A stretch of 64,000 nt of DNA. Origin: a virus. Taxonomy: Duplodnaviria > Caudoviricetes. The position numbers and the translations under genes were made by a program. Shown piece after piece: positions 33,089 through 60,308 of the stretch. The stretch spans positions 297 to 64,296 of IMG/VR virus record IMGVR_UViG_3300042327_000405; one strand, given 5' to 3'. Each line of letters begins with the position of its first letter. The stretch's first letter is position 1. Under the pieces are notes generated by a model that searched no databases, had not been told where the DNA came from, and saw only the letters and a program-made list of their open reading frames with translations.

Positions 33089-36000
33089 TTAAACTGGATC
33101 TACTACGACTTGGCTCCAATTTACGTCTGAGTACTGGGTATACTTGTAATTGCCAAACCTCAAAACCTTGTCATCATCTACTATTATTTTATTTGTTCCC
33201 GTATAACTCTTATAAACTTCAGACGGGTCAACACCATAATAACTGGTTTCTGATAAAACAAGAACCTTGTTCCAGTTAAATGAACCAGGATTCCAAAATT
33301 TCCAATCTAAATCAGTAGAATTAAGAACCTTAACTCTAAGCCAAGGCCTTTCAGAAATATTCTGAACCTCCTGAAGATTTGTTGCCTGGTAGAAAGATAT
33401 GTTATTAAATAGTAGTGGTCCAGTTAGCCTAATTGCTCCCTCAAAATATGAGAAGTCTAGGCTATCTGCAAAACTAATACCAAGGAATCCCCAGTCTTGT
33501 AAAGTGACAACTGGCTCTTTGACAATCTTTCCGTTCCAATAAAATCCTATTCCATTTTGAACTAAACCAGTTTTTGCGTCAATTGCATAAATTTTTGCTC
33601 GCCTTCCACTTGGATCGCAAGCAACAAGGTAAAACTTAATGTATGAGCCTTTACTTTCTATTTCAAAAATTTGTGTTGGAGCGTATGGGAAATAGTCTCC
33701 ATCAAATCTAATAGCAAGTTGCATAGCAATAACTTTAAATCCTTCTGCTCTACTCTGATTGACTGGAATCATAAGCCCTCGATTAATAAGGGGATCATAA
33801 ATTCCTTTTAATTGAATTCCACTTGTCTTAGTTAAATAAAGATAAGGCGATGATGCATTATAAATTGAAAAAGGATTATTCTTTTTAAAATTATAGTAAA
33901 TACCATTTTTTGTGTAAGGGTATATAGGTGTCCCAAATCTAGTACCAATAGGACTTGCGTCCGACTCATTAAGCGCTTGAGATGCATAAGACATATTTTT
34001 AATACTTACATTATTTGTTTCAGAATTCTTTACATTAATATCTATGTGTGTTACTATTGATAAATCATTAAAATCAACTCCTATAGGAGGATATATAATC
34101 ATGTTATCTACAACTTCATACTTTGTTGTCATCCAGTCTGATCCTGGAATTAAGACTCCGTTTCTTGCAGGCTTTTCTATTTTAGAAAAATAAGACGAAG
34201 TTGCATTTGCGCCGAGTTCTGTGTACTGGAATGTTATATATGTTTTTACAAGTGCACCCTCAGTATCATACCTGTAGTCTTTTGCAACCTTATTTTTTAA
34301 ATCTTCATAATCGTTATAACCAGTAAATAGATAGTTATCTAATGATTCATAAGTTCTTTGAACTGGAGAACCGTATTGATTTTCAAGATCTAAATATGTC
34401 CAGTCTACTGGATCAGTTTCTATGGCAATTGTTTTTGTTGGAATTGGATAATTAACATTAAACTGTATAAAATCAAGATCAAAATATTGATCTCCTCTTT
34501 TATCAAAAACTGATTCTGCAAAATAAGTTAGTGGTAGATTATCTTCCCAATAAGCGTTTGAAGCAACAGCAAGCGTGTATCTATTAAATAAAATACTTGG
34601 GACCAAAGTGTAACTTGCTATATGCTCAATCAAAAAGTCTTCTTCTAAAAGAATTACTCCTCCTCCAGAAATTGCTCCTGTAACAGTATCAGTTGTCCCG
34701 CCAGAGGGTGGTAAAGAGGTTGTGTCAATGCCTGCATCAATATCTATTTGTTGGTTATTTTGATAAGCAAGGAATAAGTCTTCGTTTAGTTTTGTAACTC
34801 CTATTTCATTAAACAAGTTTTTTATTTTTTGAAAATTATAATCTGTTGCAAACCCTACATTGTAAATTTTACCATTAAATGTTGCCGTATTAGTCTTATC
34901 TCCTCCAACATACATTCTCAAATCTGAAAAAGAGCCAAAAAAATCTGACACAGGATTTCCAAAGATTTCCACAAATCTAGGAATGTTAATACCTACTTCA
35001 AAAAATTCATTTTGATTTAAGACTTCAGAAGAATATAAAGTTTCTGAATTTCCATTAATGCTTATTATATATTTTAAAATGTTGTTTTCTACTTGTATTT
35101 TAAAATAATTAGAAGTATTTTCTTTTTCAATTTTAAAAAGTATTTGTGGCGTAGTTGCGTTATTTTTTAATTGAAAGCAGCCATAGAATGCTGATACAGG
35201 AGTTTTTAAAACATCAAAGTTTTCAAAGAACAAATATCCAAAGACATTGTCCCAAGAAGAGTTTGGCCTAAAAGAAAAATATTCTCTATCGTCATAAAAA
35301 AAATCTGCAGGGTTTAATATATTATTAGAAATTTTATTATCTTGAAATAGTTCTAATTTTGTTTTAGAAGAAAGGATTACCTCTGGAAGTGGGTGAGAAA
35401 TTACAGACAAAGATCTATTTGATGTTGAAATATTATCACCAAACCCTTGACTCCAAGATCCTGTTTTTGGATAAGAATAATTTGCCGTATAGTCTGCAAA
35501 TGAATAGTCAATTGCAATTGATGTACCACTATATGATGTATTAATGTTTTCTGGAATCTCAACTCCTTGACCAAAAACATATCTTCTTTTTGCAACCTGA
35601 TTAGCAACTAAATATGGATAGATTCCAACACAGTCTATATCTATTGAAGAGATATCCTCATAAGCATAAAATCCAATCCAGTCTTGATCTTTGCCATTTA
35701 CAATCTTTGATGGAAGATCTGCCGTTTCTTGAATATAGGGAATAGATATTACTTCTTCTCCATTAATTAAAAGAGAGGCATTGTCTTTTCCAACTTTTAA
35801 ATGAATAAGCATTGGCCTTGTCCATTCACCAACATAATTAGTTTTATACTCATTACCAATTTTTAAACCTACTGATGGACCGTCTACATATATTCCATCT
35901 AAAGAGTTTATTGGGCCTATAATTCTTTTGGTTTCATTAGTATAAGAATCTATTCTTATCCATGCTTCTAAAGTATATTGTTTATACTGTCCAGACTTAT

Positions 36001-36835
36001 TTAGCATTCCAACACCAGGGAATATGATAGACGGCATGCCATTGTTTTCATATAAGGTTGTATGTCCATCAGTGCCATATACTAAAGGTATTCCAGAATT
36101 TTTTGCTTTTAACATATTGTTAGAAGAAAGATAATAGGCATCTAGTTCTTGCAAGCCATAGCATTTTGCAACTAAACCCTTTTGTGGTGAAAGAGATATG
36201 GTTGAAGGAATATTTATAAGTTCCGTCCCCAAAGATGTTGAAGAAAATTCTTCTGACCACTGTCCCAAAGTTATTCCGTTAATTCTAAAGGCATTTTCTG
36301 TTTTTGAATTTCCTACAAAGTTAATTTTAATAATCAATTTAAATTCTGATTCAGTTTTAGGAATATCAAATGTTTCTGATATAAAAATCCAACTTCTATT
36401 TATTACTGAATTAAAACTTTTTAAATTAATAATATTTTGACCGCTTGTTGTATCTGTATATTGGTATCCAATTTCAAATCCAGAGACATAAGAGCCTTCT
36501 GAATACAAGTAGGATCCTATTGAGAAGGTTCCTAAATATTTGTTTAGGTCAGATGTCTTAATTGTATATTTACTTTTTAAAACTACTGATGCATTTTTAT
36601 CAGATGTGGGGTTTGCGACAACTCTTCCAACAAAACTGTCTGTGAATGGCTCACTTAGCGACTGGGGAAAACTGGAGGCCACGCCACCAACTATTTCCCA
36701 TTTTGTGGGATCAGAGATAAATCTTTTATCTTCAGAAATTAAAGAAATATAGTCAGCATTATCATCAAGTGCCCATAGCCCAATAGGGTGTTCTGCAAAC
36801 ACTTTTTCTGCGTAGAGGTTTGATGGAATAGACAT
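33089..36835 (-). CDS. Large virion structural protein (LamG/concanavalin-like)
   Basis: 1248 aa; HPIGLWALDD and YTLEAWI...LLINGEEV LamG-like patterns. Confidence 0.6.
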   Translation of the reverse strand: MSIPSNLYAEKVFAEHPIGLWALDDNADYISLISEDKRFISDPTKWEIVGGVASSFPQSLSEPFTDSFVGRVVANPTSDKNASVVLKSKYTIKTSDLNKYLGTFSIGSYLYSEGSYVSGFEIGYQYTDTTSGQNIINLKSFNSVINRSWIFISETFDIPKTESEFKLIIKINFVGNSKTENAFRINGITLGQWSEEFSSTSLGTELINIPSTISLSPQKGLVAKCYGLQELDAYYLSSNNMLKAKNSGIPLVYGTDGHTTLYENNGMPSIIFPGVGMLNKSGQYKQYTLEAWIRIDSYTNETKRIIGPINSLDGIYVDGPSVGLKIGNEYKTNYVGEWTRPMLIHLKVGKDNASLLINGEEVISIPYIQETADLPSKIVNGKDQDWIGFYAYEDISSIDIDCVGIYPYLVANQVAKRRYVFGQGVEIPENINTSYSGTSIAIDYSFADYTANYSYPKTGSWSQGFGDNISTSNRSLSVISHPLPEVILSSKTKLELFQDNKISNNILNPADFFYDDREYFSFRPNSSWDNVFGYLFFENFDVLKTPVSAFYGCFQLKNNATTPQILFKIEKENTSNYFKIQVENNILKYIISINGNSETLYSSEVLNQNEFFEVGINIPRFVEIFGNPVSDFFGSFSDLRMYVGGDKTNTATFNGKIYNVGFATDYNFQKIKNLFNEIGVTKLNEDLFLAYQNNQQIDIDAGIDTTSLPPSGGTTDTVTGAISGGGVILLEEDFLIEHIASYTLVPSILFNRYTLAVASNAYWEDNLPLTYFAESVFDKRGDQYFDLDFIQFNVNYPIPTKTIAIETDPVDWTYLDLENQYGSPVQRTYESLDNYLFTGYNDYEDLKNKVAKDYRYDTEGALVKTYITFQYTELGANATSSYFSKIEKPARNGVLIPGSDWMTTKYEVVDNMIIYPPIGVDFNDLSIVTHIDINVKNSETNNVSIKNMSYASQALNESDASPIGTRFGTPIYPYTKNGIYYNFKKNNPFSIYNASSPYLYLTKTSGIQLKGIYDPLINRGLMIPVNQSRAEGFKVIAMQLAIRFDGDYFPYAPTQIFEIESKGSYIKFYLVACDPSGRRAKIYAIDAKTGLVQNGIGFYWNGKIVKEPVVTLQDWGFLGISFADSLDFSYFEGAIRLTGPLLFNNISFYQATNLQEVQNISERPWLRVKVLNSTDLDWKFWNPGSFNWNKVLVLSETSYYGVDPSEVYKSYTGTNKIIVDDDKVLRFGNYKYTQYSDVNWSQVVVDPV

Positions 36836-36860: not shown

Positions 36861-38894
36861 CTACTTGTTTATTTTAATCTCACAGTAGTCAGTAGTGCAG
36901 TACATCTCTCCTTGAGCCTCAAGATTTTCTGCTCCATCATAAATAGCAGCAAAATCAATGTGCTTTAACTTGCCAATATACGACTCGTATTGCTCTTCAT
37001 TAATTTGAGTGTATGGCTGTTGTGGATATGTATGATTTCCCATTGGTAGGAATGATACTGCTTTTAACTGTCCTTCGTACATGTGGAGTGCTGGAACAAC
37101 ATGCTTTGACTCTGTTTCTTTGTCAAATGAAAGTGTTACAGAAACACCATTGTCAGACCAGTACTTTTGAGCAGTTGCTGCAAGTGCGATCTTCTCAAAC
37201 AACGTAACATCTTTTTCAGATCTTGGATGACCTGACTTAATTGGGAAGTATACAACTGATGTGTTTGCTGACACTACGTCATCTTCAATTGTGTACCCCG
37301 CTGCTTTGAACAAGTGCATCATTGGGTCTGTATTTCCAAATCGAACTGCACGAAGGAAGAAGTTTCCTCCAGGTCCCCAGTGAACTCCAGGAGTTGCGCC
37401 AGAAAGGATTGAAACTGATCCTGATGGCTTAACTGTTGTTACACGAATTGATTCACGAACACATAGCCATTCTGAATACTGATGATCATAGTGACGAATC
37501 TTGTTGTAACCTTCGTCCATCCACTCACGAACAATTGGCAAACCCTTTTGATCTGCAAATGATGCAATACCAGTAAGTGATGTACCAATACGACGATTGC
37601 GTTGCATGATACCGTTTGTTTGTGGCCAGTGTGTTGGAACAAGTGTTACAGTCTTTCCATAAAGGTATGCAAACTTCAGGGTACGCAAGAAGTCTTCCTT
37701 AGATTCATGACGATTTAAGTGCACTTCTACAAGTGTGCATAGTTCGTATGATTCCAACGGCTGCTCCGCACATGGGTTGAATCCCATTACACGATAATCC
37801 TTACCGTCTGGCGCATCCTTTAGTCGTCCATAATTACGGGCAACATCAAGCCAAATAAAACCTGGTTCTCCATTTTCCGTAATTAAATCTACATAGTCTT
37901 CGTAATCTGTTCCTACTTCTGCTGAAATAGAATTATTAGACATCCAAGCCCAGCCTGGATTTTCTGGATCAAAAGAATTTCGTTCTGGGAACATCTCTGA
38001 GTTCTTTAGATTCATGAATGTTTCATCCCCTTCATTACCTAAAGCAAGAGTTGCTGATCTGCGGACATTGCCTGATACCACACAAGTACCAATGAGGTTT
38101 ACAAGGTCTACAATGGCACGAGAATCTAGTGTTTCTCCGCCTCTGGAGCCGATTACACGGTCTATCTGGTCGTGCAACTTGATAAGAGGTGCAGGCCCTG
38201 ATGCAACGCCTCCAAAGCCCTTAATAGGTGCTCCAAGTGGTCTGATCAAATCGTAGTTAAATTTCTGAATACTCTGGTTTGCTCTCAAATAAGAGTTGAT
38301 AAGGAGTCGTACTGACTCTACCCAGCCTTCACGAGTGTCTGGAATTTCGAACACCTGTTCTGGTTCTGTTGGGGTATAGATTGAGAAATTCTTATCCTGT
38401 CCCACTGTATCAAACCCTACACCAATGCCAAGCATCAAGGCGTCCATTACCCAAGCAAAAAGTGCTCCTGGATCGTTCTTATCAAGGTCCTTTGTAGATA
38501 CCATTGCACAGTTCTGTAGTGCTGCTGAGTTCTTCTTCTCCATAGTCATAGGAGTTCCAAATGCCCACATGCCACGGCCTGGTGGTGTCCATTTTAATTC
38601 AAACATTCTTTGGAATGCTTCTTGTGCTGACTTCTGAGCCTTATAGTCATTCCATGGCAAACGGTTTTCTTTAGCATGATTCTTCTGAACTGAATACATA
38701 CCCTCGATTACACGGCGACAAACCTCGTGCCATCTTTCCTTAGTTCCGTCTTCCTTCATTCGAGAATATGTACGAATAAAAGTAATCTCTCCAAGTGAAT
38801 TTTCTGCTGCATCTTTAAACCCAAATGGGCTTTCTTGGTTCTTGTACTTTTCTACAAAGTCTTCTGGAAGTTTAAAACTAAAAAAATCTGACAT
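36861..38894 (-). CDS. nrdJ: Class II (adenosylcobalamin-dependent) ribonucleotide reductase, RTPR type
   Basis: PPGRG, LQNC, GNVRRSA, NPCAEQ, TTVKPSG; C-terminal CTTDYC. Confidence 0.93.
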   Translation of the reverse strand: MSDFFSFKLPEDFVEKYKNQESPFGFKDAAENSLGEITFIRTYSRMKEDGTKERWHEVCRRVIEGMYSVQKNHAKENRLPWNDYKAQKSAQEAFQRMFELKWTPPGRGMWAFGTPMTMEKKNSAALQNCAMVSTKDLDKNDPGALFAWVMDALMLGIGVGFDTVGQDKNFSIYTPTEPEQVFEIPDTREGWVESVRLLINSYLRANQSIQKFNYDLIRPLGAPIKGFGGVASGPAPLIKLHDQIDRVIGSRGGETLDSRAIVDLVNLIGTCVVSGNVRRSATLALGNEGDETFMNLKNSEMFPERNSFDPENPGWAWMSNNSISAEVGTDYEDYVDLITENGEPGFIWLDVARNYGRLKDAPDGKDYRVMGFNPCAEQPLESYELCTLVEVHLNRHESKEDFLRTLKFAYLYGKTVTLVPTHWPQTNGIMQRNRRIGTSLTGIASFADQKGLPIVREWMDEGYNKIRHYDHQYSEWLCVRESIRVTTVKPSGSVSILSGATPGVHWGPGGNFFLRAVRFGNTDPMMHLFKAAGYTIEDDVVSANTSVVYFPIKSGHPRSEKDVTLFEKIALAATAQKYWSDNGVSVTLSFDKETESKHVVPALHMYEGQLKAVSFLPMGNHTYPQQPYTQINEEQYESYIGKLKHIDFAAIYDGAENLEAQGEMYCTTDYCEIKINK

Positions 38895-38987: not shown

Positions 38988-39701
38988 TTACTTAAAGGTT
39001 TTCTTTTGCCAAAACTTAAGTCTATAGCCATTTTGAAAAACAGATCTAACTTTATCTCTTTGTTCCTCTACTTTTTTTGCTGAAAAGTTTTTGTCTAATT
39101 CCATCGTCCAGTCTTCTCTTTTAAATGGAAAAACCTGAAACATCGGAGTTCCTTGTTTGATAGTTCCTTTAAAATTCTTTTTTACTAAAAAGGATAGGTG
39201 ACCATCAGTAAAATAGTTATCAGTATCCACCACGGCATCAATAGCCTTTAGGGGTGATGGAGGTTGGTGCATGGGGCTAGTAAAGAGTGTGCTATAACCA
39301 GGATCAGTATTAACCATCCAGGTAGGGTGAATTCTTAAAATTTTATTACAGTAAATATCTTTATCTATAGGCAAACTAGACACCTGCTCTTCTGAATGTT
39401 CGCTTATTAATAATGAATAGTATTTATTCATAGCAGCAGGAAGTTGAAGATTTATGTTTCCATCAGTTGTGTCTAGGTATATGTCACATGGAACTTTTAA
39501 GACATACCCCATTGCCATTGCATCAAAAAATGCTTGACATTTTTTTACAGTAAGTCTCATTATTCCTCTATCGGGAATATCACTTCCTGATATTGCTGGC
39601 TGATCTTTATACCACAACGGGACATTTTTTGTTGCTTGTTCTGGCTCTGGAACAATATTTGTCAGCGCTGGATACATCTGTAAAAATCTAATTGTGTTCA
39701 T
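38988..39701 (-). CDS. Conserved phage protein (DUF6065-like)
   Basis: KKCQAFFDAM..GY, W...T.PGYS.LF..P, GTP..Q..PFKRE. Confidence 0.55.
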   Translation of the reverse strand: MNTIRFLQMYPALTNIVPEPEQATKNVPLWYKDQPAISGSDIPDRGIMRLTVKKCQAFFDAMAMGYVLKVPCDIYLDTTDGNINLQLPAAMNKYYSLLISEHSEEQVSSLPIDKDIYCNKILRIHPTWMVNTDPGYSTLFTSPMHQPPSPLKAIDAVVDTDNYFTDGHLSFLVKKNFKGTIKQGTPMFQVFPFKREDWTMELDKNFSAKKVEEQRDKVRSVFQNGYRLKFWQKKTFK

Positions 39702-39732
39702 AAAAGCCCTTCTCTATATTAATTATAGCATA

Positions 39733-40149
39733 TTAAAGGGTTTGCCACATGTTTGGCTGTTGTGATTTAAGTAGAGAACTTGGAGCAACATAGAAATATA
39801 GCAACTCTTGATCAATTTCTACAACTGTTGAGTTGTCTATTCCTCCACGTATGACTATTAGATCGCTTTCTTGTGGCTCTAATTTTGCAGTTTCATTATC
39901 TAAGAAAATATTTTCAATAATTTTACCCTTTTTATTTAAATAAATTTTTCCATAAAAAGATAAGATATTTTTTGATCCAGAGGTAAACTTAAGATCGTTA
40001 TTTTCCAAAAGCATACTTTCATTAGAAAACAAAACATGATATTCTTGCTTTTCATAATTTATTTTATTTTCTTTACAGATACTTTGTACAAGTGTTTTTA
40101 TTGTGCTATTAGTCTCATTTCCTAAATCAGAAACAATGTAGTTTATCAT
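39733..40149 (-). CDS. Hypothetical protein
   Basis: AT-rich ORF coupled to the GNAT gene. Confidence 0.6.
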   Translation of the reverse strand: MINYIVSDLGNETNSTIKTLVQSICKENKINYEKQEYHVLFSNESMLLENNDLKFTSGSKNILSFYGKIYLNKKGKIIENIFLDNETAKLEPQESDLIVIRGGIDNSTVVEIDQELLYFYVAPSSLLKSQQPNMWQTL

Positions 40150-40652
40150 GTTGAAACTCTCCTACCAAAAAAAACATATGGGTATACTGGTTGCTCAAAA
40201 AATTCTTTTCTCATGTTAAAATTATTTTCTGTTTGTGCTGTTCCAAAATCAAAATTTATAACTTTAGAAGCATTGGCAACTGCTTTATTTGCTACATCTG
40301 TACCAGATTCATGAACAATCTTTTTATTGAACCCATTTTTCATAAGATAAAAACAGTATACTGTTAATGCTGAAGCAATTCCCCTTTTTCTTAAATGTGG
40401 TGATATAAAGATTCTTCCAGATGCATATGTTTCATCATCTACTTTTCTCATTGTTATGTATCCATCTGGATAATCGTTTAGAATATAGTCTCCAACAAAT
40501 AAAGAACCACTTGGGTGTTTATCATTAAAATATATATAACCTATGCCATCTACATTAGGATTTGGATGATCCTTTAAAAAAACAAGATGCGACCAAGAAC
40601 CCTTTAATTCTTTTGGATGATCAAAGGATGAAGTGTCAACAACATCAAACAT
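40146..40652 (-). CDS. GNAT-like acetyltransferase
   Basis: Acetyl-CoA binding motif IFISPHLRKRGIAS. Confidence 0.6.
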   Translation of the reverse strand: MFDVVDTSSFDHPKELKGSWSHLVFLKDHPNPNVDGIGYIYFNDKHPSGSLFVGDYILNDYPDGYITMRKVDDETYASGRIFISPHLRKRGIASALTVYCFYLMKNGFNKKIVHESGTDVANKAVANASKVINFDFGTAQTENNFNMRKEFFEQPVYPYVFFGRRVST

Positions 40653-40654
40653 TA

Positions 40655-41875
40655 TTATGCAGGTTCTGTTGGATAATCTATTTGATAACCGTCATAAACT
40701 AAGAAATGATCTGTATAGAACATGTCATAAGGCTCGCAGTTAATAGAGATAACTTCATGTGGAATGCTTGAAATTATTAATTCAGTTATGGGTGTCCAAG
40801 TGTTTGTATCTGTAGACCAAAGTTCATCTGTATCTAAAAGATCTGCACTTTCAACCATGCTGGCAACATTATTTCTTTTTACAAGCATTGTGTGAGATCC
40901 TGAATAAAATTCTCCATTTACAGATACAGACTGTGATGCTTGTGAACCTCCCAAATGTGTAATTGTTGTTACTTTGTCTGGAAGAATTTCAAGACCTTCT
41001 GGGCTTGCTGTCCAATTGTGAACATCTTCTCTTGTGAAGTTAATACCCAAACCAGGAATTTCTGTAGAAACAAGTTCATCTCCTACTTTAAGATTTGATG
41101 CTTGAACGTATCCACTTGGAGTTAAAACCAGTGTGTGAAGACTTATAGACTTAAATGCTCCGAATGCACTGAATGCACCAAAGGCACCGAATGCTCCGAA
41201 AGCACCAAAGGCTGCAAAGGCACCGAAGGCTCCGAAAGCACTGAATGCACCGAAGGCACCGAAGGCTCCGAAGGCAGAAAACACTGTAGTTACAGATCCT
41301 GATTCACCAGATGTTGCCGAGTTACCGTTAGCATTTGTAGCATATACGTTATATGTCTGTGCAGTTCCCTGTTCTTGACCAACGCTTACTGAAAGTCCAG
41401 ATGTGTCCCCAGACTTTCCATCTGATGATGTCCAACGATAGTTAGTAATTGCTTTACCACCATTTGCTGGTGCTGACCATGAAACGGAATCTGTTCCTGC
41501 TGATGGAGAAGATGCACTTGGTGCAGATGGAGTTGCTGGCACTGTTGTTATAGTTATTGCACCAGTTGCAGCAGACGCAGCAGAAGTTCCTGCAGCATTA
41601 GTAGCCTGTACTGTAAATGTTGGTGTCGCTCCAGTGGCAATTCCAGTTACTGTAATTGGAGAAGATGCTCCTGTTCCTGTTTGACCTGTACTTGCTGTTA
41701 CTGTAAATGATGTTGCTGCATTTGGACCTGTAGGAGTAAAAGTAACTGTTGCTGCTCCATTGTCATATGCCCGTGCAGTTCCAACATCTGTTGCTGTTCC
41801 AATAGTTGGTGCACTTGGTGCCAAAAAGTCATTTGATGCTTGAGACTTTTTACCTATTTTTTTACCTGATGCCAT
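40655..41875 (-). CDS. FN3-domain protein with a (G/S/A)AF x14 repeat and a C-terminal Hint domain
   Basis: Two FN3-like modules; repeat at 41153-41278; SISLHTLVLTPSG..ASNLKVGD, SGSH and VISINCEPYDMFYTDHFLVYD. Confidence 0.75.
   Translation of the reverse strand: MASGKKIGKKSQASNDFLAPSAPTIGTATDVGTARAYDNGAATVTFTPTGPNAATSFTVTASTGQTGTGASSPITVTGIATGATPTFTVQATNAAGTSAASAATGAITITTVPATPSAPSASSPSAGTDSVSWSAPANGGKAITNYRWTSSDGKSGDTSGLSVSVGQEQGTAQTYNVYATNANGNSATSGESGSVTTVFSAFGAFGAFGAFSAFGAFGAFAAFGAFGAFGAFGAFSAFGAFKSISLHTLVLTPSGYVQASNLKVGDELVSTEIPGLGINFTREDVHNWTASPEGLEILPDKVTTITHLGGSQASQSVSVNGEFYSGSHTMLVKRNNVASMVESADLLDTDELWSTDTNTWTPITELIISSIPHEVISINCEPYDMFYTDHFLVYDGYQIDYPTEPA
41153..41278 (-). repeat. Tripeptide repeat (G/S/A)AF, 14 copies, synonymously diverged
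   Basis: 9-nt period gaaggcacc/gaatgcacc/gaaagcacc variants. Confidence 0.9.
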
Positions 41876-41906: not shown

Positions 41907-43166
41907 TTACGCTGACAAGTCTCCGAAGACAACCCATGTATTTGCTGCTCTCTTAAAGAGAGTTGCAGATGACCAAGTTGTACGAAGTTTTAAGCCAGGT
42001 GTTGCATTTACTGTTGTAGTTCCAGGTGTTACTGCTGCGATTGTTACCTGTCCTGCTCCAGTTTGAAGAATATCAATAGATGTTCCAATTGGATAATTTA
42101 ATACAGCATCTGTTGGAATTGAAAGAGTTATCGCTGATGCTGAATTCATTTCAATTAGATCATCTCTTTCAGTAAGTGATGAAAGTGTGTATGATGCTGT
42201 CTTTTGTGAAATTGGTGTTAAAGAATCTACCTTTAATCCAAGATTAGTTGTGACTGTTGCTGCAAAGTTTGCGTCATCACCAAGTGCTGCAGCAAGTTCA
42301 TCAAGTGTGTTGAGGGCTGCTGGTGCACCAGTTAGAAGAGCATTTACTTGTGATGTTGCATCGGCGATTGCTTCTGCCTTTGCTGTAGCAATTGCTGTAG
42401 ATTGTGCAGTAGATACTGGCTTTGACGCATCTGCTGTATTATCAACATTGCCTAGGCCTAAAGAAGTCTTTGTAACTGCTGCAACCTCTGACTTAAGTGC
42501 TAGAAGTGATGTATCTGCAATTCCATGTACGTTTGATGTATCAAGATCGTGTGCTGAAACCTTAGCATCTGCTGCTGTTCCTGCTGCTGTGATTGCTTCA
42601 GTTTTTGCTGTAGCAATTGCTGCTGCCTGTGCTGTTGAAACTGGCTTCGATACATCTTGTGTATTGTCTACGTTTGAAAGACCTACTGAAGACTTTGTAA
42701 GTGCTGCTACTGCAGTAGTTACAGCATCGGTGGCAAAAGTTTTTGTTGCAAGAAGGTCAGTATCTGCAATTCCGTGAACATTTAATGTGTCCGCTATATG
42801 GTCAGTAATATCACCTCTAAGTTCGGCTTCCATTTCAGTAAATGTTGCGTTAGCAAGAAGAGTAAGATTATCGACGTAAGTTTTTGTTGTATATAATGAC
42901 AAGAAGTCAGGATTATCTCCCAATGCATCTGAAATTTCTGATAGTGTATTTAAAGTTTCTGGAGCCATGCCAATTACTGAGTCAATTGCATTTGTAAGTT
43001 CTGTTGCATTAGCAAAATATACTAATTGAGACCATGTAGATGTTCCATTACCCATCTTAAATTTGCTTGTGTCAGTCTCAAAACCGATTTCACCTGCTGC
43101 TAAAACTGGGTTTGCAGCCGTCCATTGGGCTGCAGATCCTCTGCGCTGTTGCATTCTTGTTGCCAT
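41907..43166 (-). CDS. Tail fibre protein (Mtd/hyaluronidase-like N-terminus)
   Basis: RRGSAAQWTAANPVLAAGEIGFETDT; LNTLDELAAALGDD; GLGNVDNT repeats. Confidence 0.8.
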   Translation of the reverse strand: MATRMQQRRGSAAQWTAANPVLAAGEIGFETDTSKFKMGNGTSTWSQLVYFANATELTNAIDSVIGMAPETLNTLSEISDALGDNPDFLSLYTTKTYVDNLTLLANATFTEMEAELRGDITDHIADTLNVHGIADTDLLATKTFATDAVTTAVAALTKSSVGLSNVDNTQDVSKPVSTAQAAAIATAKTEAITAAGTAADAKVSAHDLDTSNVHGIADTSLLALKSEVAAVTKTSLGLGNVDNTADASKPVSTAQSTAIATAKAEAIADATSQVNALLTGAPAALNTLDELAAALGDDANFAATVTTNLGLKVDSLTPISQKTASYTLSSLTERDDLIEMNSASAITLSIPTDAVLNYPIGTSIDILQTGAGQVTIAAVTPGTTTVNATPGLKLRTTWSSATLFKRAANTWVVFGDLSA

Positions 43167-48302: not shown

Positions 48303-48404
48303 AATCTTTATTATACCACCCTCTAAAGTTGATTTATCAAAAATCTCATGCTATACTTAGTAGTAACACCTACCAGGGTGTTATTGTTTTCTAAGGAGGA
48401 AACT

Positions 48405-48965
48405 ATGATTAAATTTATCGAAAGAAACAAAGAGATCATTAGCACACTCAGTATCGTTGCATTAGTGTCGGTTATGTCCAATGCTAGTGCTTCTTCAGAT
48501 CTTGATACAAAAAACAATCTTAGCCTTGAACAGGCTCAGACATCGGAACCCGCCTCGAAAGAGGTTTTTTTGGTTTCTAAGACAAAAAAACTAGAGAGTT
48601 TTGAGAACAAGGTTTCTCTGACTGATTTAGAACTAAAGGAACTGCTTTCTCTAGTAGGCTTCAAGGGTAAAGACCTTGTTGTTGCTTGGGCAGTGGCCAA
48701 GAAAGAATCTAATGGGAGACCATTGGCTTTTAATGGCAACCACAAGACTGGCGACTCGTCTTATGGAATGTTTCAAATCAATATGATTGACGGCCTTGGT
48801 CCTGATCGTAGAGATAAGTTTGACATTAATTCTAATGCCGAACTATTCAATCCCGTCAAGAATGCAGAAATTGCCTACTATATGACAAATGGTGGAGATG
48901 ACTGGTCTTCTTGGAAGGGTATTACCCCAAGAACCAAATTCTGGATGGCTAAATTTCCTAAATAA
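48405..48965 (+). CDS. Secreted lysozyme-like/lytic transglycosylase
   Basis: N-terminal signal-like hydrophobic segment; AVAKKES, YGMFQIN and W.SW motifs; SD AAGGAGG; promoter TGCTATACT at 48349. Confidence 0.8.
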   Translation: MIKFIERNKEIISTLSIVALVSVMSNASASSDLDTKNNLSLEQAQTSEPASKEVFLVSKTKKLESFENKVSLTDLELKELLSLVGFKGKDLVVAWAVAKKESNGRPLAFNGNHKTGDSSYGMFQINMIDGLGPDRRDKFDINSNAELFNPVKNAEIAYYMTNGGDDWSSWKGITPRTKFWMAKFPK

Positions 48966-49492: not shown

Positions 49493-50302
49493 TTATAAAA
49501 ACCTTTCTGATATATCGTCATTTGCAAACTCTGCTGGAACTGCAACTTTGTAGTTTTCATTCAAATAATGATGTAAAACTAGTTCAGATGTTGGGTTTAT
49601 CCAGGGCTCTAAGTGTAGCATAACATGTTTCTTATTATAGAACCTCGTTTGAATCCCGATGCTTTTATAATATTCATATAGGGCATATTGGTCAATGACC
49701 CATAGGGTTTGGCTATACATTTCTTCGGATATCTGATTTTTTGCATCTATTAGTTTAAGGTTTATGTATTCTTTCATAAACTTAAACATATTTTTTTCTG
49801 TGTGTATTAAATTTTTACTAAATAAAACCTGCCCAGCATTAAGTCCATTATTCTCAACATTAAGACTTTCCATAATATCGTAGCAGTTGTCTTCTCTTGT
49901 ATAGATAGATTCCGTATTCCCATATATAGAAAATAATATTTCTGGGTCATTATAAAAAATAGTATCAGTATCGACATAAAGAACATTATCATATCCTAAA
50001 CTTCTTAACGTTTCAAATGTGTTTGTCCACCTATGCCAAAGTCTTTCTGCATTTTTTGAGTTATCATAATCAATGTTTGGTACGTTATAACTAGGTATTT
50101 TAAAATATTTAAAAATAATATTTAAACTTTTATATTTTTCTATACTAGAAAAAAAATTTTTATCTGAAATGTATGCATAAACATCTATATTTTTATTAAA
50201 CCTTCTAAGTCTTGACACTGAATAAATCAACTGTCTAAACCTAGAAGAGTCTTCAAATTTTTCTTCACCTGAATTAATAGAATAAACTATTGCATTTTTC
50301 AT
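49493..50302 (-). CDS. Glycosyltransferase (GT-A fold, DxD)
   Basis: VLYVDTDTIF, NAGQVL, DQYAL and HHY motifs, GT8-like. Confidence 0.75.
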   Translation of the reverse strand: MKNAIVYSINSGEEKFEDSSRFRQLIYSVSRLRRFNKNIDVYAYISDKNFFSSIEKYKSLNIIFKYFKIPSYNVPNIDYDNSKNAERLWHRWTNTFETLRSLGYDNVLYVDTDTIFYNDPEILFSIYGNTESIYTREDNCYDIMESLNVENNGLNAGQVLFSKNLIHTEKNMFKFMKEYINLKLIDAKNQISEEMYSQTLWVIDQYALYEYYKSIGIQTRFYNKKHVMLHLEPWINPTSELVLHHYLNENYKVAVPAEFANDDISERFL

Positions 50303-50898
50303 TATCTCATCCAAGAGACTACGGCATATCTTTCGCCTTCAATAACTGGTAATACTGAATGATTATAAACATATGTTGATGGGAAGACTATCATCTGGTT
50401 TGCTTTTGGTTTAAAAGCAATATCAAACCTAGGAAACAATATTTCTCCACCTAAATAATTATCATTTATATAATATGTTGTAGAAATTCTTCTATGATAA
50501 TCTTGGTGATCGTCAATGTGGTTTGTAAACTTTTGACCAACTCCATACTTTAATATTGCGTAAGAATCATGCCATGGTGCTGCAGTACCAAAATAACTTT
50601 TATAATCTCTTTCTATTGGATCAAAATTTTCAAAGAATAGATTGTTTAGTGTTGAATTAAAAGAAGATTGAAGACTAGTAAAGTCTTCAGAAATTGCTCC
50701 ATAATATGGAACCCCAAAGGTACTGGTATCTCTTGAATCTGTGTTTACTCCAGGATCACTGTCAGCCTTTACTGATGCTGGAACCCATAAAATATTTGCA
50801 GAAACAAGTCCTTCTTCAATATCTTTATATAGATTCTCACTGTTAGGAATTACATTACTATAAACCATTATTCCTGGTGCTATTTCTTCTTTTATCAT
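50302..50898 (-). CDS. Prolyl 4-hydroxylase-like 2OG-Fe(II) oxygenase
   Basis: LKYGVGQKFTNHID...YINDNYLGGEI.FP...FPSTYVYNHSVLPV..GERY. Confidence 0.9.
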   Translation of the reverse strand: MIKEEIAPGIMVYSNVIPNSENLYKDIEEGLVSANILWVPASVKADSDPGVNTDSRDTSTFGVPYYGAISEDFTSLQSSFNSTLNNLFFENFDPIERDYKSYFGTAAPWHDSYAILKYGVGQKFTNHIDDHQDYHRRISTTYYINDNYLGGEILFPRFDIAFKPKANQMIVFPSTYVYNHSVLPVIEGERYAVVSWMR

Positions 50899-50899
50899 T

Positions 50900-51139
50900 T
50901 TACCATTTTCCTAAAGGGCAGGTCGCTAGTTCTAATTTTGTTTTTGCTGACATAAAGCATCCACACTTTCTACACTGTGTAGTTAATTTTATTAGTTCTG
51001 GACAGGCTTTGCATATTTCAAGCCTTGCGTCAGATACTGCAGAGTCTTCAACATATTTTACTGGATTAAGCATATCCCAAGGTCTTGTTTGTCCAAGATT
51101 TTGTTTATACTTTTGCCAAGGACTTAAATTCTCAGGCAT
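50900..51139 (-). CDS. Small Cys-rich protein
   Basis: RLEICKACP...CRKCGC...CPLGKW. Confidence 0.75.
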   Translation of the reverse strand: MPENLSPWQKYKQNLGQTRPWDMLNPVKYVEDSAVSDARLEICKACPELIKLTTQCRKCGCFMSAKTKLELATCPLGKW

Positions 51140-51557: not shown

Positions 51558-53234
51558 TTATCCGCAGGCACCAGCAGTAACAACCCAGGTTTGGGTAGTT
51601 CCACAATTACTTACTTGTCCAGTACATAGGTCAACTCCACAACAGAATGGGCCAAGTCCTTCCCAGAACTGATCTGTACATCCTGTAGGGGTAGGTGCTA
51701 CAGGGGTAGGTGCTACAGGGGTAGGTGCTACAGGGGTAGGTGCTACAGGGGTAGGTGCTACAGGGGTAGGTGCTGGGGCAGGTGCTGGGGCAGGTGCTGG
51801 AGCAGGTGTAGGGCTAGTACATCCTGAGCAACTGTTATGATCAAAGTATGTTGTAACACAGTCGCTATTCCAAATCTCGTCGTAAGTTACGCATGCTCCA
51901 AAGAAAGAATTATACTGACAAGGCCCAGCAGTTTTTACTGAATAAGGAATACATGTTGGTGTAGGTGCTACTGGTGTAGGTGCTACTGGTGTAGGTGCTA
52001 CAGGTGTAGGTGCTACAGGTGTAGGTGAAACTGGAGTTGGGGATGTAGCACAATTTGTTGGAGCAGCAGGTTGTGAAACTGTAGAACAAGAAATACTTGT
52101 TGCACCAGAATTTGTAAATAGTGTAGTGTAGTCTGAACAGGCAGTGTTAATATTGTTAGAAATAAAATTACTTCCATCAATTGTTATTGCTCCTGATGTT
52201 ACTGGAGCACCGCTTTGACAATATGAAAGATAAATTGTTCCAGGAACTGGTACTGATGGGCAAGAAGCACCATACCCAAGTTGTGCTACTATCTGTTCGC
52301 TACTTAAAGACGGATTAGTTGTTGTTCCAACATTTACAGTTCCACCTGCTGTTGCAGTTCCGTAGTATCCACCTCTAGAGGCAGGGATTATTGGATCACA
52401 GGCAGTATAAATATTATAAGTTGTTGGTGCTACAGGAGTTGGAGCAACTGGAGTTGGTGCTACAGGAGTTGGAGCAACTGGAGTTGGTGCTACAGGAGTT
52501 GGTGCAACTGGAGTTGGTGCAACTGGAGTAGGTGCTACAGGTGTTGGAGATACGGGTGTAGGGGTTGGACTTACGCTGTTAAGTAAGTTTCCAAAAAAAA
52601 ACCATGTGTTGTCGGCTATTTTAACTAAAGTTCCTTTTGAATACTGACCATCTAAAGATTTTATACTAGACTTGCTATTAATTGATACTGCTCCACTGCC
52701 TTCAGATACTGTTACTGATCCAGTTCCTGTTTGAATTATGTCAATTGAATATCCTACTGGAATTGGTACTGAAGCGTTTTCTGGAAGTGTTACAGTCATT
52801 GGGCTAGAAGAATATAAAATAGCAGTCTTTCCGACATCGCTTGCTGATAAAGTAAAACTTGCTGTTTTTGTTACAACTGTTCCAGTATTTGCAATTTTAG
52901 GCTCAAGGTCAAATCTATCATCAACGGAGTTCCAGTCAATTCCATTTCCTGCAAGATCTGGATAGGCCCCTGTTGCTCCATTTATTGCATTTGTAATTGC
53001 AGCAGTTCTATTTACTATTTCTGCTGCATCTGCGTCGGCAAGATCTTGTAAGTGTTTAGCAATAGATGGATTTACAAGATTTGCTTTGTTTGTATTAGAT
53101 CCATCATAACTATATGATCCATAGTGATAAAGTCTTAGCGCTGCCTGAATATCTGCTGCATCTGAAAGACCAGGAACTTTGGTAGGGAAAAATCCAGTAC
53201 CACTAACGGTATTATCAATATTTTCTGCTGCCAT
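51558..53234 (-). CDS. Fibre/adhesin-like protein with PTPVA repeats and Cys-rich modules
   Basis: N-terminal fibre domain (IDIIQTGTGSVT, shared with 41907-43166), three (PTPVA)n blocks, (PA)n. Confidence 0.8.
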   Translation of the reverse strand: MAAENIDNTVSGTGFFPTKVPGLSDAADIQAALRLYHYGSYSYDGSNTNKANLVNPSIAKHLQDLADADAAEIVNRTAAITNAINGATGAYPDLAGNGIDWNSVDDRFDLEPKIANTGTVVTKTASFTLSASDVGKTAILYSSSPMTVTLPENASVPIPVGYSIDIIQTGTGSVTVSEGSGAVSINSKSSIKSLDGQYSKGTLVKIADNTWFFFGNLLNSVSPTPTPVSPTPVAPTPVAPTPVAPTPVAPTPVAPTPVAPTPVAPTPVAPTTYNIYTACDPIIPASRGGYYGTATAGGTVNVGTTTNPSLSSEQIVAQLGYGASCPSVPVPGTIYLSYCQSGAPVTSGAITIDGSNFISNNINTACSDYTTLFTNSGATSISCSTVSQPAAPTNCATSPTPVSPTPVAPTPVAPTPVAPTPVAPTPTCIPYSVKTAGPCQYNSFFGACVTYDEIWNSDCVTTYFDHNSCSGCTSPTPAPAPAPAPAPAPTPVAPTPVAPTPVAPTPVAPTPVAPTPTGCTDQFWEGLGPFCCGVDLCTGQVSNCGTTQTWVVTAGACG

Positions 53235-54621: not shown

Positions 54622-55353
54622 TTATACCACGCTGACATATACAGAATTGAGAATTACCGATGCATCAAAGTCTGTTCGTATTTGAGGAACTGCTCCATTA
54701 CCCCACATAGACCGATCTTCAATAAATATATTCTGAGTAACTGAAAGGTTGTATGTATTTTGATATTTAAGAGAACCGACAAACTGAACAAACTCCTGAT
54801 CTTTACTTGGAAAATATGTTCTTAGCCAAACCTCTGTATTTGATGTATATGTGGTTAGTTCAAAGTTGTATGTTACAAATACTTGAGAACCTTGTTTGAT
54901 ACCGTGAAAGTTTAAGGCTCTCTGGTGGCTGTTCCAAAGACTAGTGCAATCTTTAGGAAGATAAGTTTCATTTTGGGTTTTCTCTTTTGTATCTAGCAAT
55001 AATGTGACCCATCCATCATCACCCTGAGATATTCCAAGTTTTGTTGGTTTTTCAATAGTATTTGTATATGAAGCCCAGCCTGCCTGTTGTCCAGAAGAAG
55101 ACAAAGAACTTAGTCCATTTTGTCCAGATGGTCCTTTTTCTCCTCTTTGACCCTTTTGTCCTTCTGGTCCTGCTGGTCCTGGAGATCCATCCTTTCCATC
55201 TCTTCCTGCTGGTCCTTGTGGACCTTGTGGTCCAGGAACTGGAAGAAAGGAAAGAGTATTTTCTTGGTATGGGGCTGATTGGCTTTGTTCTACTTGTGCA
55301 GCATAACTAGTTTTTTTTGCACCTGGAAAGTCCATAGATTTAGAAGCAGCCAT
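54622..55353 (-). CDS. Collagen-like repeat protein
   Basis: GPQGPQGPAGRDGKDGSPGPAGPEGQKGQRGEKGPSGQNG. Confidence 0.8.
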   Translation of the reverse strand: MAASKSMDFPGAKKTSYAAQVEQSQSAPYQENTLSFLPVPGPQGPQGPAGRDGKDGSPGPAGPEGQKGQRGEKGPSGQNGLSSLSSSGQQAGWASYTNTIEKPTKLGISQGDDGWVTLLLDTKEKTQNETYLPKDCTSLWNSHQRALNFHGIKQGSQVFVTYNFELTTYTSNTEVWLRTYFPSKDQEFVQFVGSLKYQNTYNLSVTQNIFIEDRSMWGNGAVPQIRTDFDASVILNSVYVSVV

Positions 55354-57816: not shown

Positions 57817-58977
57817 TTATTTATTTTTAACATATATTATTATGTCATCTTTAGGCCTATAGGTTAAAGCGCCTATATAAGACACTTCATCATTCAGCAA
57901 ATCTGTGTCAAACTTCTTAGCAATTTTAGTCAAGATTAACTCTATTTCCATTAAAACAAATTCTTTTGCGATGCACTGTCTTTTACCAAACAAAAATGGA
58001 AAGTATTCTCCTTTTTCTAACTCTTTGTTTTTAAGCCATCTTTCAGGATTGAATATATCTGGATCTTCAAAAATATTTTTATCTTTATGCATAGCCAAAG
58101 AACTTACTATTACTTTAGTTCCAGCAGTCAAATCTGTTCCATCTACACTTACATCTTCGGTGGCCATTCTTTCAGTATTCCAAACAGGCGGACACATTCT
58201 TAGAACTTCATTAATAAAAGCATCAACACCTTCCTCTCTGGATATTTTATTTTGCCATTTTTTATTTATAGATAGATAATATATTGCCCACTCTAATAAG
58301 TATGCAGTTGATTCATAACCAGAAAATATTATTGTAACCGAGTGATCATATAAATCATTAATGTCCATTTTGTTATTGCTATATGAGTTAATTAGAATAT
58401 CTAAAAGATCATTTTTATTTTCTTTAGACTCTAGCCTTTCATCTACTATTCTTTTTACAAATTCTTTTAATTCTTTTGTTAGTATGACTAGTTCTTGATC
58501 ACTTATATTGGAAAGAACTTTGTCTGACGCTATAGACATATTATCTCTTATTTTTATAAAATCATTATCTACATTTGTTGAAAAAAATACTTCCATGTTA
58601 ATTTTAAAAACTAAGAACTGCATTTCTTTTCTGACATTAACTTCGTCAGACCAAGACTGCAAAGAAAAATCTATAATGTCAGACACTTTATCTTTATATT
58701 CTTTTATTTTATCGCTACTAAATGCTGAAAAAATTTCTTTTTTGTCATTCATGTGTTTAGGTTCTTCTGTAGTAAATAGGCCTTCTCCTAAAACACACTT
58801 TAGCCTTTTCCAGACCCCGCCTTTTACAAAACTTTTATATTTATTTAGAAGAACATCTTCTACCGCTTTACTAGTAAACGCAAAAAACACATTTTCTAAT
58901 TTTGTACTTGACAAATAGTTAGATTTTGTTTTATTTTTTAAAATAGTGATAGCGGAGACTTGGTCTTTGTTTAGCAT
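57817..58977 (-). CDS. Cytochrome P450
   Basis: SGYEST (I helix), EVLR, PERW, FLFGKRQCIA heme-Cys motif; 386 aa from the leaderless ATG. Confidence 0.93.
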   Translation of the reverse strand: MLNKDQVSAITILKNKTKSNYLSSTKLENVFFAFTSKAVEDVLLNKYKSFVKGGVWKRLKCVLGEGLFTTEEPKHMNDKKEIFSAFSSDKIKEYKDKVSDIIDFSLQSWSDEVNVRKEMQFLVFKINMEVFFSTNVDNDFIKIRDNMSIASDKVLSNISDQELVILTKELKEFVKRIVDERLESKENKNDLLDILINSYSNNKMDINDLYDHSVTIIFSGYESTAYLLEWAIYYLSINKKWQNKISREEGVDAFINEVLRMCPPVWNTERMATEDVSVDGTDLTAGTKVIVSSLAMHKDKNIFEDPDIFNPERWLKNKELEKGEYFPFLFGKRQCIAKEFVLMEIELILTKIAKKFDTDLLNDEVSYIGALTYRPKDDIIIYVKNK

Positions 58978-60160: not shown

Positions 60161-60308
60161 AGGTTTAGTATACAGCATAGGCAAAAACCCAAATAGCCTA
60201 AAATCTGAATATTTTGTCTACATGTATGATACACAATATACAGAAAATAAACACAAAAAAATAGTGCGCCCATAATAGACACACTATCGATCTTGAATAT
60301 AATACGCA

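Follow-up and report, generated by a model that had tools for sequence, protein, structure and literature searches.

The 64,000-nucleotide stretch of viral DNA considered here (the window; positions 297 to 64,296 of the IMG/VR record IMGVR_UViG_3300042327_000405, Caudoviricetes) encodes a 406-residue protein in which a conserved N-terminal peptide, two FN3-like modules and fourteen (G/S/A)AF triplets lead into a C-terminal Hint domain. Hint domains are known as inteins, as the processing domains of Hedgehog proteins, as bacterial intein-like (BIL) domains of bacterial surface proteins, and as devices that release toxins. The gene, for which we use the term family gene, is followed by genes for a GNAT-like protein, for a protein of 138 residues (p138) and for a DUF6065-like protein, and the series ends at a ribonucleotide reductase (RNR) gene (Table 1). 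An earlier note made from the letters of this DNA had placed the four open reading frames from the family gene to the DUF6065-like gene as we find them, all on the minus strand.

A Hint domain behind an aromatic repeat

The C-terminal domain of the window protein is, by profile comparison and predicted structure, a genuine Hint/BIL-type fold. When a profile of 44 such C-terminal domains was compared with the PDB, the top 14 rows were all BIL or intein chains (E 4.3e-7 to 0.0075), with the BIL domain 2lwy as the best match (4.3e-7). An AlphaFold2 (AF2) model of the domain (pLDDT 85.3, pTM 0.78) matched 50 PDB chains in Foldseek at E<=1e-3, and every listed one was a BIL domain, an intein or a Hedgehog protein; the C. 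thermocellum BIL domain 2lwy again ranked first (2.6e-7; TM 0.79, target), followed by Tetrahymena BIL2 (6y75). The nearest models in BFVD belong to uncultured Caudovirales proteins (E 6e-13 to 6e-11, TMq ~0.8) that carry automatic names such as 'PASTA_pknB domain containing', 'Hint domain containing' and 'Fibronectin type III'. The earlier note had proposed a Hint-like domain and a search with hidden Markov models of Hint families as its check; the Pfam models miss the domain, the PDB profile finds BIL and intein chains, and the predicted model has the Hint fold.

Both a nucleophile at position 1 and a block-B motif, the marks of the Hint superfamily, are present (Ser243; S325-G-S-H328), and Ser243, His328 and Asp395 align to position 1 of intein block A, the block-B His and the terminal Asn of inteins, respectively. 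The remaining key residues are Thr248, Glu381-Pro382-x-Asp384, Thr388 and Tyr394, which precedes the terminal Asp395. The alignment thus agrees with the serine start (K-SISLHTLV), the SGSH motif and the ending LVYD that had been read from the sequence. As in BIL domains of the B type, the N-terminal motifs are kept, the His-Asn pair is absent, and the protein, itself not conserved, carries the domain in a variable region. The C-terminal boundary differs from that of a canonical class 1 intein, since it consists of Tyr394-Asp395, a Gly at position +1 and 11 residues in all downstream. Nor does the domain interrupt a conserved host protein as such inteins do, for relatives that lack it simply end behind the repeat. 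Without a +1 nucleophile (Gly396), and with so short a stretch behind it, canonical splicing is excluded; Ser1 and a block-B His in a domain that has neither His-Asn nor a +1 nucleophile make N-terminal cleavage or transfer the expected chemistry, as the earlier note had argued from the missing terminal Asn. Assignment to the class 3 inteins was tried and rejected, because Cys380 is out of register with position 4 of block F, as was a release of the type seen in polymorphic toxins, because nothing toxin-like follows the Hint domain and the tails measure 2 to ~50 residues. A three-copy complex prediction of residues 186-406 gave a score of 0.00 and is uninformative either way on oligomerisation.

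In 172 distinct sequences that were compared, the active-site positions covary without exception. The Ser class (n = 108, including the window protein, which is by its residues a typical Ser/His/Asp member) combines Ser1 and a block-B His with an x-Asp end (HD, YD, FD, LD, KD or MD; LE in one case). Ser1, the block-B His, Trp288, Thr303, Glu381, Pro382, Asp384 and Thr388 are conserved in 100% of its members, Thr248 in 99% and the terminal Asp in 98%, and these catalytic positions are still kept in the more distant rows shown, which are 28-40% identical to the window domain. Outside the domain, the residue at position -1 is Lys in 60 of the 108 sequences and that at position +1 is mostly G (48), S (29) or R (18). 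At the block-B position the Cys class (n = 38) has Gln (16) or Glu (18), with His kept in four members; 27 of the 38 end in His-Asn, mostly followed by a single Lys, and the other 11 have degenerate ends (YH, YN, YS, HI, HP). In those parts of a review (PMC7765530) that deal with the B- and A-type BIL domains of Amitai (2003) and Dassa (2004), the B type is described as lacking the C-terminal motif and as cleaving its N-terminal flank. By the residues they keep, the Ser class looks like the B type, and the Cys class looks like the A type, with His-Asn retained and no +1 nucleophile.

A subgroup of the Ser class (loci L013, L020, L076 and L190-L202; forms of 454-464 residues) has a conserved tail of ~45 residues behind His-Asp (...LYQQWKLSQQENPVDPNNPPA). 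If the terminal Asp were also to cleave, this tail would be a released peptide.

Table 1. Features of the family gene and its surroundings in the window
Feature	Position	Strand	Basis and remarks
Family gene (FN3-repeat-Hint), 406 aa	40655..41875	(-)	Open reading frame; AGGAG site 8 nt upstream of ATG
Conserved N-terminal peptide, residues 1-25, MASGKKIGKKSQASNDFLAPSAPT...	41801..41875	(-)	20 diverse relatives aligned
Two FN3-like modules, ~residues 26-110 and 111-198	41282..41800	(-)	Pfam fn3 and relatives
14 (G/S/A)AF triplets, residues 200-241	41153..41278	(-)	Charge-free, one third Phe
Predicted scissile junction Lys242-Ser243	41147..41152	(-)	Alignment; Ser243 is Hint position 1
Hint domain, residues 243-395	40691..41149	(-)	PDB profile, AF2 model, Foldseek
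11-residue tail GYQIDYPTEPA after Hint	40658..40690	(-)	+1 residue Gly396, no nucleophile
GNAT-like gene, 168 aa	40146..40652	(-)	Begins 2 nt past the stop of the family gene
p138, 138-aa open reading frame	39733..40149	(-)	Start overlaps the GNAT-like stop (ATGA)
DUF6065-like gene, 237 aa	38988..39701	(-)	31 nt past p138; 93 nt ahead of RNR; final gene before RNR
Class II (B12-type) ribonucleotide reductase	36861..38894	(-)	RNR_Alpha 5e-32, RNR-II_ins_dom 7e-15, phrog_367 4e-143
Upstream fibre gene, 419 aa, Mtd_N N-terminus	41907..43166	(-)	Mtd_N 1.5e-13; tail-fibre PHROGs

Conserved beginnings and interchangeable ends

The triplets directly ahead of the Hint domain are consecutive and comprise ten GAF, three SAF and one AAF unit. 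They are written with varied codons (11 distinct 9-mers among the 14 triplets), and TRF reports periods of 9, 18 and 36 at 41154-41276 with 76-83% matches. Mixed codons are found as well in ten relatives with 4-20 GAF units. Such codon diversity, in the window and in the relatives, argues that the repeat is kept at the level of the protein and is not the product of fresh slippage, in line with what the earlier note had concluded from the window's triplets. Other members of the family carry FSPFxVFG, GFTPF, PFFPPFF (up to 194 residues) or YSFTP repeats; whatever its type, the repeat is aromatic and has almost no charged residues. We rejected a reading of (GAF)n as collagen-like, because Ser or Ala replaces Gly in 4 of the 14 units and it is Phe, not Gly, that is conserved across the repeat types.

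The N-terminal peptide is a presumed docking peptide. Across 20 diverse relatives it keeps K5, G8, S11, P20 and P23 without exception and F17 and L18 with few exceptions. Behind it, Pfam detects fn3 in the window protein in a single weak stretch (residues 41-103, E 2.2e-4, 21.8 bits, under the 25-bit cut-off). The fn3 matches of relatives cover both the 40-105 and the 120-200 ranges, so that the two FN3-like modules the earlier note had seen are likely.

The family is large: 903 proteins were found at E<=1e-3, and the N-terminal 198 residues used as a query recovered at least 962 clusters at E<=1e-20, in each case from 8000 scored candidates. UniProt contains relatives under automatic names, and matches of the FN3 part in cellular genomes are mostly actinobacterial. 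An NCBIfam search with the 406-residue protein returned nothing useful, and a blastn search with 8 kb solely RNR and short fibre-repeat matches. The architecture (FN3, aromatic repeat and Hint in a phage fibre cluster) was not described in any paper that our literature searches found; the phage papers that mention a Hint domain concerned true inteins in TerL or a helicase.

The C-terminal ends of these proteins are interchangeable. In a census of 173 listed cluster representatives, 101 proteins end in a Ser-class Hint domain (a further one is truncated), 27 in a Cys-class domain and two are unclassed, whereas 35 end in the repeat or just past it (four of these look truncated or junk), six in a Cys-rich tail and one, P0283, in Peptidase_S74. 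The genes that lack a Hint domain are not broken Hint genes, since the next gene begins within ~110 nt. Over the N-terminal 198 residues P0283 reaches 71% identity, and PF13884 follows at residues 229-281 (E 7e-12), immediately behind an FSPFGAFG repeat and with the usual ...YSDERVK... motif; Pfam finds no Peptidase_S74, a domain marked by a Ser-Asp-x-Arg-x-Lys cleavage motif, in the window protein. The Cys-rich tail, 17-25 residues long (e.g. ...GGCRGFKPYPYCFCQGTIWAC), occurs in P0280, P0290, P0310, P0312, P0269 and P0291 as well as at loci L038, L046 and L050, and recurs across independent clusters.

A tree of the N-terminal part (56 rows) requires at least 16 changes of C-terminal class and at least 16 of repeat type. 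Identity in the N-terminal half is 50-76% among the listed matches, which were ranked by that region, as against 16-40% identity to the window's C-terminal domain outside the close GAF clade. The cassette of repeat and Hint domain also terminates PASTA proteins of ~300 residues and proteins of 914-951 residues in sister phages. A search with the Hint profile gave 4039 representatives at E<=1e-3; among the best 150 of these, nearly all non-fragment rows have the Hint domain at the C-terminus or close to it, and aromatic or proline-rich low-complexity sequence usually precedes the domain. Pfam detected fn3 in 31 and PASTA in 26 of 101 representatives. In one representative of the Hint family, P0243, the Hint domain comes immediately after a PTPVT repeat.

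The fibre cluster and its variable island

The window covers nearly all of a contig of 64,296 nt. Its minus strand also encodes a portal protein, a prohead protease, a major capsid protein and a run of Mtd_N-type fibre genes, and the RNR gene sits amid structural genes. On viral contigs, 431 loci of the family were confirmed, and the gene order described next comes from the best 80 of these. All 80 share one gene order: p191, p138b, p148, fibre622, p149, (fibre310), fibre419, the family gene, a variable island, RNR (absent in some), a 1248-residue protein, p130 and portal. The family gene thus stands immediately after Mtd_N-type fibre genes in every one of the 80 loci, and the variable island has RNR as its conserved border on the right. 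The 1248-residue protein is encoded in the window at 33089-36835(-), between RNR and portal; its position is kept in relatives, and it matched no Pfam or PHROG family.

The source is an uncultured siphovirus, whose tape measure protein of 2960 residues (14085-22967(-)) implies a very long tail. Its portal is 45-47% identical to those of ~130-kb Streptomyces phages, and this, together with the PASTA domains and the actinobacterial FN3 matches, leads us to guess at an actinobacterial host. A host assignment from the bins of metagenome-assembled genomes was discarded, because the full-length matches lie on four contigs of unrelated taxa and these are probably mis-binned phage contigs.

Directly behind the family gene, the GNAT-like protein scores 22.0 bits against Acetyltransf_1, marginally over the cut-off of 20.7. 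Acetyltransf_1 is found in 10 of 28 relatives at E<=0.1, Arg88 is invariant, distant members no longer have the motif Gly, and profiles of the family gave nothing significant against PDB sequences; the GNAT identity that the earlier note had given this protein is weak. When viral contigs were queried with the GNAT-like family and the best 47 loci were kept, the gene immediately upstream ended in a Hint domain in all 47, and the 37 distinct upstream genes were all of the Ser class. Their scaffolds are FN3-GAF, FN3 with a Pro/Cys insert, PFF, PASTA, a 951-residue protein, GNYGNY/Pro repeats, and GFTPF with the 45-residue tail, and the GNAT-like proteins themselves are down to 27% identical across the 47 loci. 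Since the scaffolds differ so widely, the GNAT-like gene appears to follow the Ser-type Hint domain and not the repeat. The converse fails, as 21 of 48 close loci run from the Hint gene straight into the DUF6065-like gene. With about eight scaffold groups and a Ser-class background of 77%, the association with the Ser class is by itself not statistically compelling; the notable fact is that the GNAT-like and Hint genes are never apart in the loci kept. Only within the close clade is the GNAT-like gene followed by p138; the p138 product matches no Pfam, PHROG or NCBIfam family, and the atlas that was searched gives just viral hypothetical clusters for it.

The DUF6065-like protein matches phrog_7084 (1.3e-40). 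The window copy reaches 17.3 bits against PF19541 (cut-off 26.6), yet the earlier note's label is upheld by the 17 of 31 relatives that match this model (best 4e-31); among its neighbours in the atlas, PF19541 is found in 23% and 11% of members. Its AF2 model (pLDDT 83.2) resembles the dUTPase 3h6x (VIA Z 10.2, 120 residues aligned, root-mean-square deviation 3.4), and the top 22 rows of the structure comparison are all dUTPase or dCTP-deaminase kin, after which the scores drop to Z<=4.9. Foldseek gave weak matches, the Pfam dUTPase model was found in one of 31 members (0.075), and a profile of the family found nothing significant among PDB sequences. The gene adjoins RNR in every locus that continues that far. 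The dUTPase-like fold of the model and the adjacency to RNR suggest that this protein more likely belongs with nucleotide metabolism than with tailoring of the fibre, with the reservation that a shared fold does not show function.

The island always holds small enzyme-like genes, the identity of which varies: 2-oxoglutarate-Fe(II) (2OG-Fe(II)) oxygenases, an Asp/Asn hydroxylase, a sulfotransferase, short-chain dehydrogenases/reductases, DUF6065-like proteins and a family of ~220 residues that we call F0. Behind PFF-type genes, members of the 2OG and DUF6065-like families can together number as many as nine or ten. F0 is absent from the window and follows the family gene in 1-4 copies in 48 of the 80 loci (e.g. 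L004:5128-5790, L005:9257-9919); its invariant His126-x-His128, His138 and His176-Pro-His178 are likely to form a metal site. No Pfam or PDB sequence match was found for F0, and hhalign showed no relation to the DUF6065-like family.

The earlier note had proposed to compare the type of repeat with the type of neighbouring enzyme across loci, and we tallied both for the 55 distinct genes of the 80 loci. Genes with GAF repeats have a Ser-class Hint domain in 10 of 10 cases, the DUF6065-like gene in nine of the nine with data, and the GNAT-like gene with p138 in five of nine; F0 accompanies all 20 FSPF/FTPF genes with a Cys-class Hint domain, and the DUF6065-like gene none of these 20. Tests on independent pairs pointed in the expected direction and were underpowered (5 pairs, p ~0.13-0.25; for GAF and the DUF6065-like gene, 2.9 concordant and 0 discordant pairs, median p 0.25). 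The expected direction is thus found, but the comparison lacks power, and the GNAT-like gene tracks the Hint class.

Several further genes of the window deserve mention in their own right. A fibre-like protein of 558 residues (51558-53234(-)) contains three PTPVA/PTPVS repeat arrays and Cys-rich segments, and the genes after it are, in this order, DUF6171 (50900-51139(-)), a 2OG-FeII_Oxy_3 protein of the prolyl-hydroxylase type (50302-50898(-)) and a 269-residue open reading frame (49493-50302(-)). This succession of fibre, repeat and enzyme genes may parallel the layout at the family gene, as the earlier note had suggested. At 54622-55353(-) lies a gene for a 243-residue protein with a collagen triple-helix repeat (Pfam Collagen 6e-8) and tail-fibre PHROG matches. 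The sole plus-strand gene of its block (48348-48965(+)) encodes an SLT_3 lysozyme-like protein whose N-terminus resembles a signal peptide; in sister phages, a gene combining PASTA, repeat and Cys-class Hint domain stands beside the homologue of this gene. Cytochrome P450 genes are rare in phages, and the window has two neighbouring ones at 57817-58977(-) and 59000-60178(-) (Pfam p450 1.6e-47 and 1.9e-52). Together with the oxygenase-rich islands, this pair hints at oxidative chemistry.

A candidate self-removing cap and its alternatives

We give somewhat better than even chances to the view that the Hint domain is a self-removing cap, which would cut between Lys242 and Ser243 and leave FN3-(xAF)14 on a virion appendage. 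The precursor would consist of the N-terminal docking peptide, the two FN3 modules, a charge-free (G/S/A)AF stalk or tail, and the Hint cap. Ser243 would attack the carbonyl of Lys242 in an N-to-O acyl shift, with His328 assisting, and the resulting ester would be resolved, most simply by water; an ~18-kDa fragment of Hint domain and tail would be released, and FN3-(xAF)14-Lys would be left with a free C-terminus. The cap may serve to keep or fold the sticky aromatic repeat through synthesis and assembly and would then remove itself, much as Peptidase_S74, a C-terminal chaperone that cleaves itself, does in other fibre proteins. The strongest argument is a comparative one: close relatives would reach the same mature architecture without any cap, or with Peptidase_S74 in its place. 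The suggestion of the earlier note that processing exposes a Phe-periodic tail has gained in strength from those relatives that end after the repeat and from P0283.

The sole known role of Peptidase_S74, a domain of phage tailspikes and fibres, is to fold a fibre and then to cut itself off. In P0283 this domain (PF13884) occupies the same slot as the Hint domain, the C-terminal end of a fibre-cluster protein, and its self-removal is what is proposed for the Hint domain. Fold and chemistry are unrelated, however, and a role in trimerisation is established for Peptidase_S74 only; its intramolecular chaperone auto-processing (ICA) and trimerisation are treated in a paper on the ICA of MyRF (PMC8326128).

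Comparison with other self-processing proteins places the window domain nearest to the BIL domains. It shares with BIL domains such as 2lwy the Hint fold, a location in a hypervariable region of a non-conserved surface protein, the lack of a +1 nucleophile and, in the window as a prediction, autocleavage instead of splicing. Unlike BIL domains, it is viral and stands at the extreme C-terminus behind an aromatic repeat, with Ser1 in place of Cys1 and a near-invariant terminal Asp; its Cys-class relatives depart from the BIL pattern in the loss of the block-B His (Gln or Glu in 34 of 38). Hedgehog proteins resolve the ester formed by their Hint domain with cholesterol. Like Hedgehog (1at0, 6tyy) and BIL2 (6y75), the window protein has a C-terminal Hint domain that would make a (thio)ester, with structural E values of 3e-5 to 3e-7. 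In contrast to Hedgehog, there is no sterol-recognition region (the tail measures 11 residues), and the stretch from block A to block B has no invariants besides Trp288 and Thr303/304, with no conserved Asp or His as a cholesterol-activating base. In Nup98, GLFG repeats are followed by a self-cleaving domain that cuts a Phe/Lys-Ser bond through an N-O acyl shift at Ser. The window protein likewise has a dense Phe repeat ahead of a Ser-type, presumably cleaving domain, a likeness that is one of analogy only, as the autoproteolytic fold of Nup98 is not Hint, the protein is eukaryotic, and its repeats have hydrophilic spacers.

Several points weigh against the cap. We know of no Hint domain that acts as a folding or trimerisation chaperone. 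Plain hydrolysis needs neither the near-invariant terminal Asp nor the link to the GNAT-like gene, and both suggest some extra chemistry. A location on the virion is deduced from gene order alone; a tblastn search with the 406-residue protein gave no match in 50,697 cultured or deposited phage records, and PHROGs holds no family for it. Finally, no Hint-clan model of Pfam matches the window protein at E<=0.1, for which reason we place the domain in a new BIL-like Hint subfamily outside the curated BIL families, and the Intein_splicing matches among Cys-class relatives (13 of 101 representatives) all remain under the gathering score.

The extra chemistry might be conjugation, an unlikely course of events in our judgement, in which a specific nucleophile, not water, would resolve the Ser243 ester, for instance the amine of a Lys or of a stem peptide, or a hydroxyl, carried by another virion protein or by the host wall; the aromatic tail would thereby be attached covalently. 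The GNAT-like protein would assist, as an acyl-transferase or by acetylating the freed amine of Ser243 and so trapping the ester. BIL2, the second-best structural match, forms isopeptides with Lys, and in the part of PMC8616854 that concerns it the Tetrahymena domain is described as joining the eNH2 group of a Lys to a C-terminus and thereby conjugating ubl4 to substrates. The terminal Asp, conserved in 98% of the class, the constant position of the GNAT-like gene behind Ser-class domains of varied scaffold (47 of 47), and the peptidoglycan-binding PASTA domains of 26 of 101 sister proteins also fit conjugation. Against this, the variants with no Hint domain, with a Cys-rich tail or with Peptidase_S74 can yield just a free C-terminus, so that conjugation is not essential to the protein; the identity of the GNAT-like protein is weak; 21 of the 48 close loci pass from the Hint gene to the DUF6065-like gene without it; and neither a Hedgehog-type sterol region nor a general base between blocks A and B is present.

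An extension of this idea, to which we attach a low probability, is that the Ser/His/Asp Hint domain and the GNAT-like protein form a two-part device for processing or ligation. The Hint domain would make an otherwise unfavourable oxy-ester at Lys242-Ser243, and the GNAT-fold partner would acetylate the freed alpha-amine of Ser243, trapping the ester, or would alternatively transfer FN3-(xAF)14 as an acyl group to an amine, which a virion protein or the peptidoglycan of the host would supply. Similarly improbable in our view is a Hint domain that stays uncleaved and forms the variable tip at the far end of the appendage, a knob for binding or structure whose intein-like residues would be relics. 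The C-terminal part is indeed far more divergent than the N-terminal part and swaps between lineages as receptor-binding tips do, and 11 of 38 Cys-class members have degenerate ends. A relic would not, however, retain exactly the catalytic positions, as the 108 Ser-class sequences do (Ser1, His and Asp 98-100% conserved), and the same slot otherwise holds a self-cleaving S74 domain or nothing.

Least probable is the proposal of the earlier note that the GNAT-like, p138 and DUF6065-like proteins form a cassette that chemically modifies the Phe-periodic repeat: the genes are translationally coupled (2-nt gap, ATGA overlap, 31 nt), enzyme-like genes always occupy the slot after the family gene (80 loci), and GAF-type genes have the DUF6065-like gene in nine of nine cases and F0 in none, but an evident acceptor side chain is missing from the GAF repeat, no enzyme genes lie next to the second repeat-Hint genes of sister phages, adjacent DNA is co-transferred anyway, the pairs test comprised five pairs, and, of the proposed partners, the GNAT-like gene is tied to the Ser-class Hint domain and not to the repeat type, the DUF6065-like protein pointing with its dUTPase-like fold and its RNR neighbour to nucleotide metabolism.

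Whichever chemistry applies, a very large and unpublished viral family uses the Hint domain to end its fibre-cluster proteins, in which extreme aromatic or proline repeats come before it. One slot with five ends (Ser/His/Asp Hint, Cys/(Gln,Glu)/His-Asn Hint, S74, Cys-rich knot, nothing) provides a natural comparison that bears on the benefit of a cap for a sticky fibre and on the way in which a Ser-type Hint domain without His-Asn resolves its ester. The GNAT-like gene paired with the Ser class is a candidate accessory factor for Hint chemistry, for which no precedent is known to us. If the two-part device proved true, it would be a means of fixing a sticky aromatic fibre covalently without a sortase, and the PASTA-bearing sisters would aim this chemistry at the cell wall. 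The Ser/Asp domains, for their part, may offer cysteine-free self-cleaving tags.

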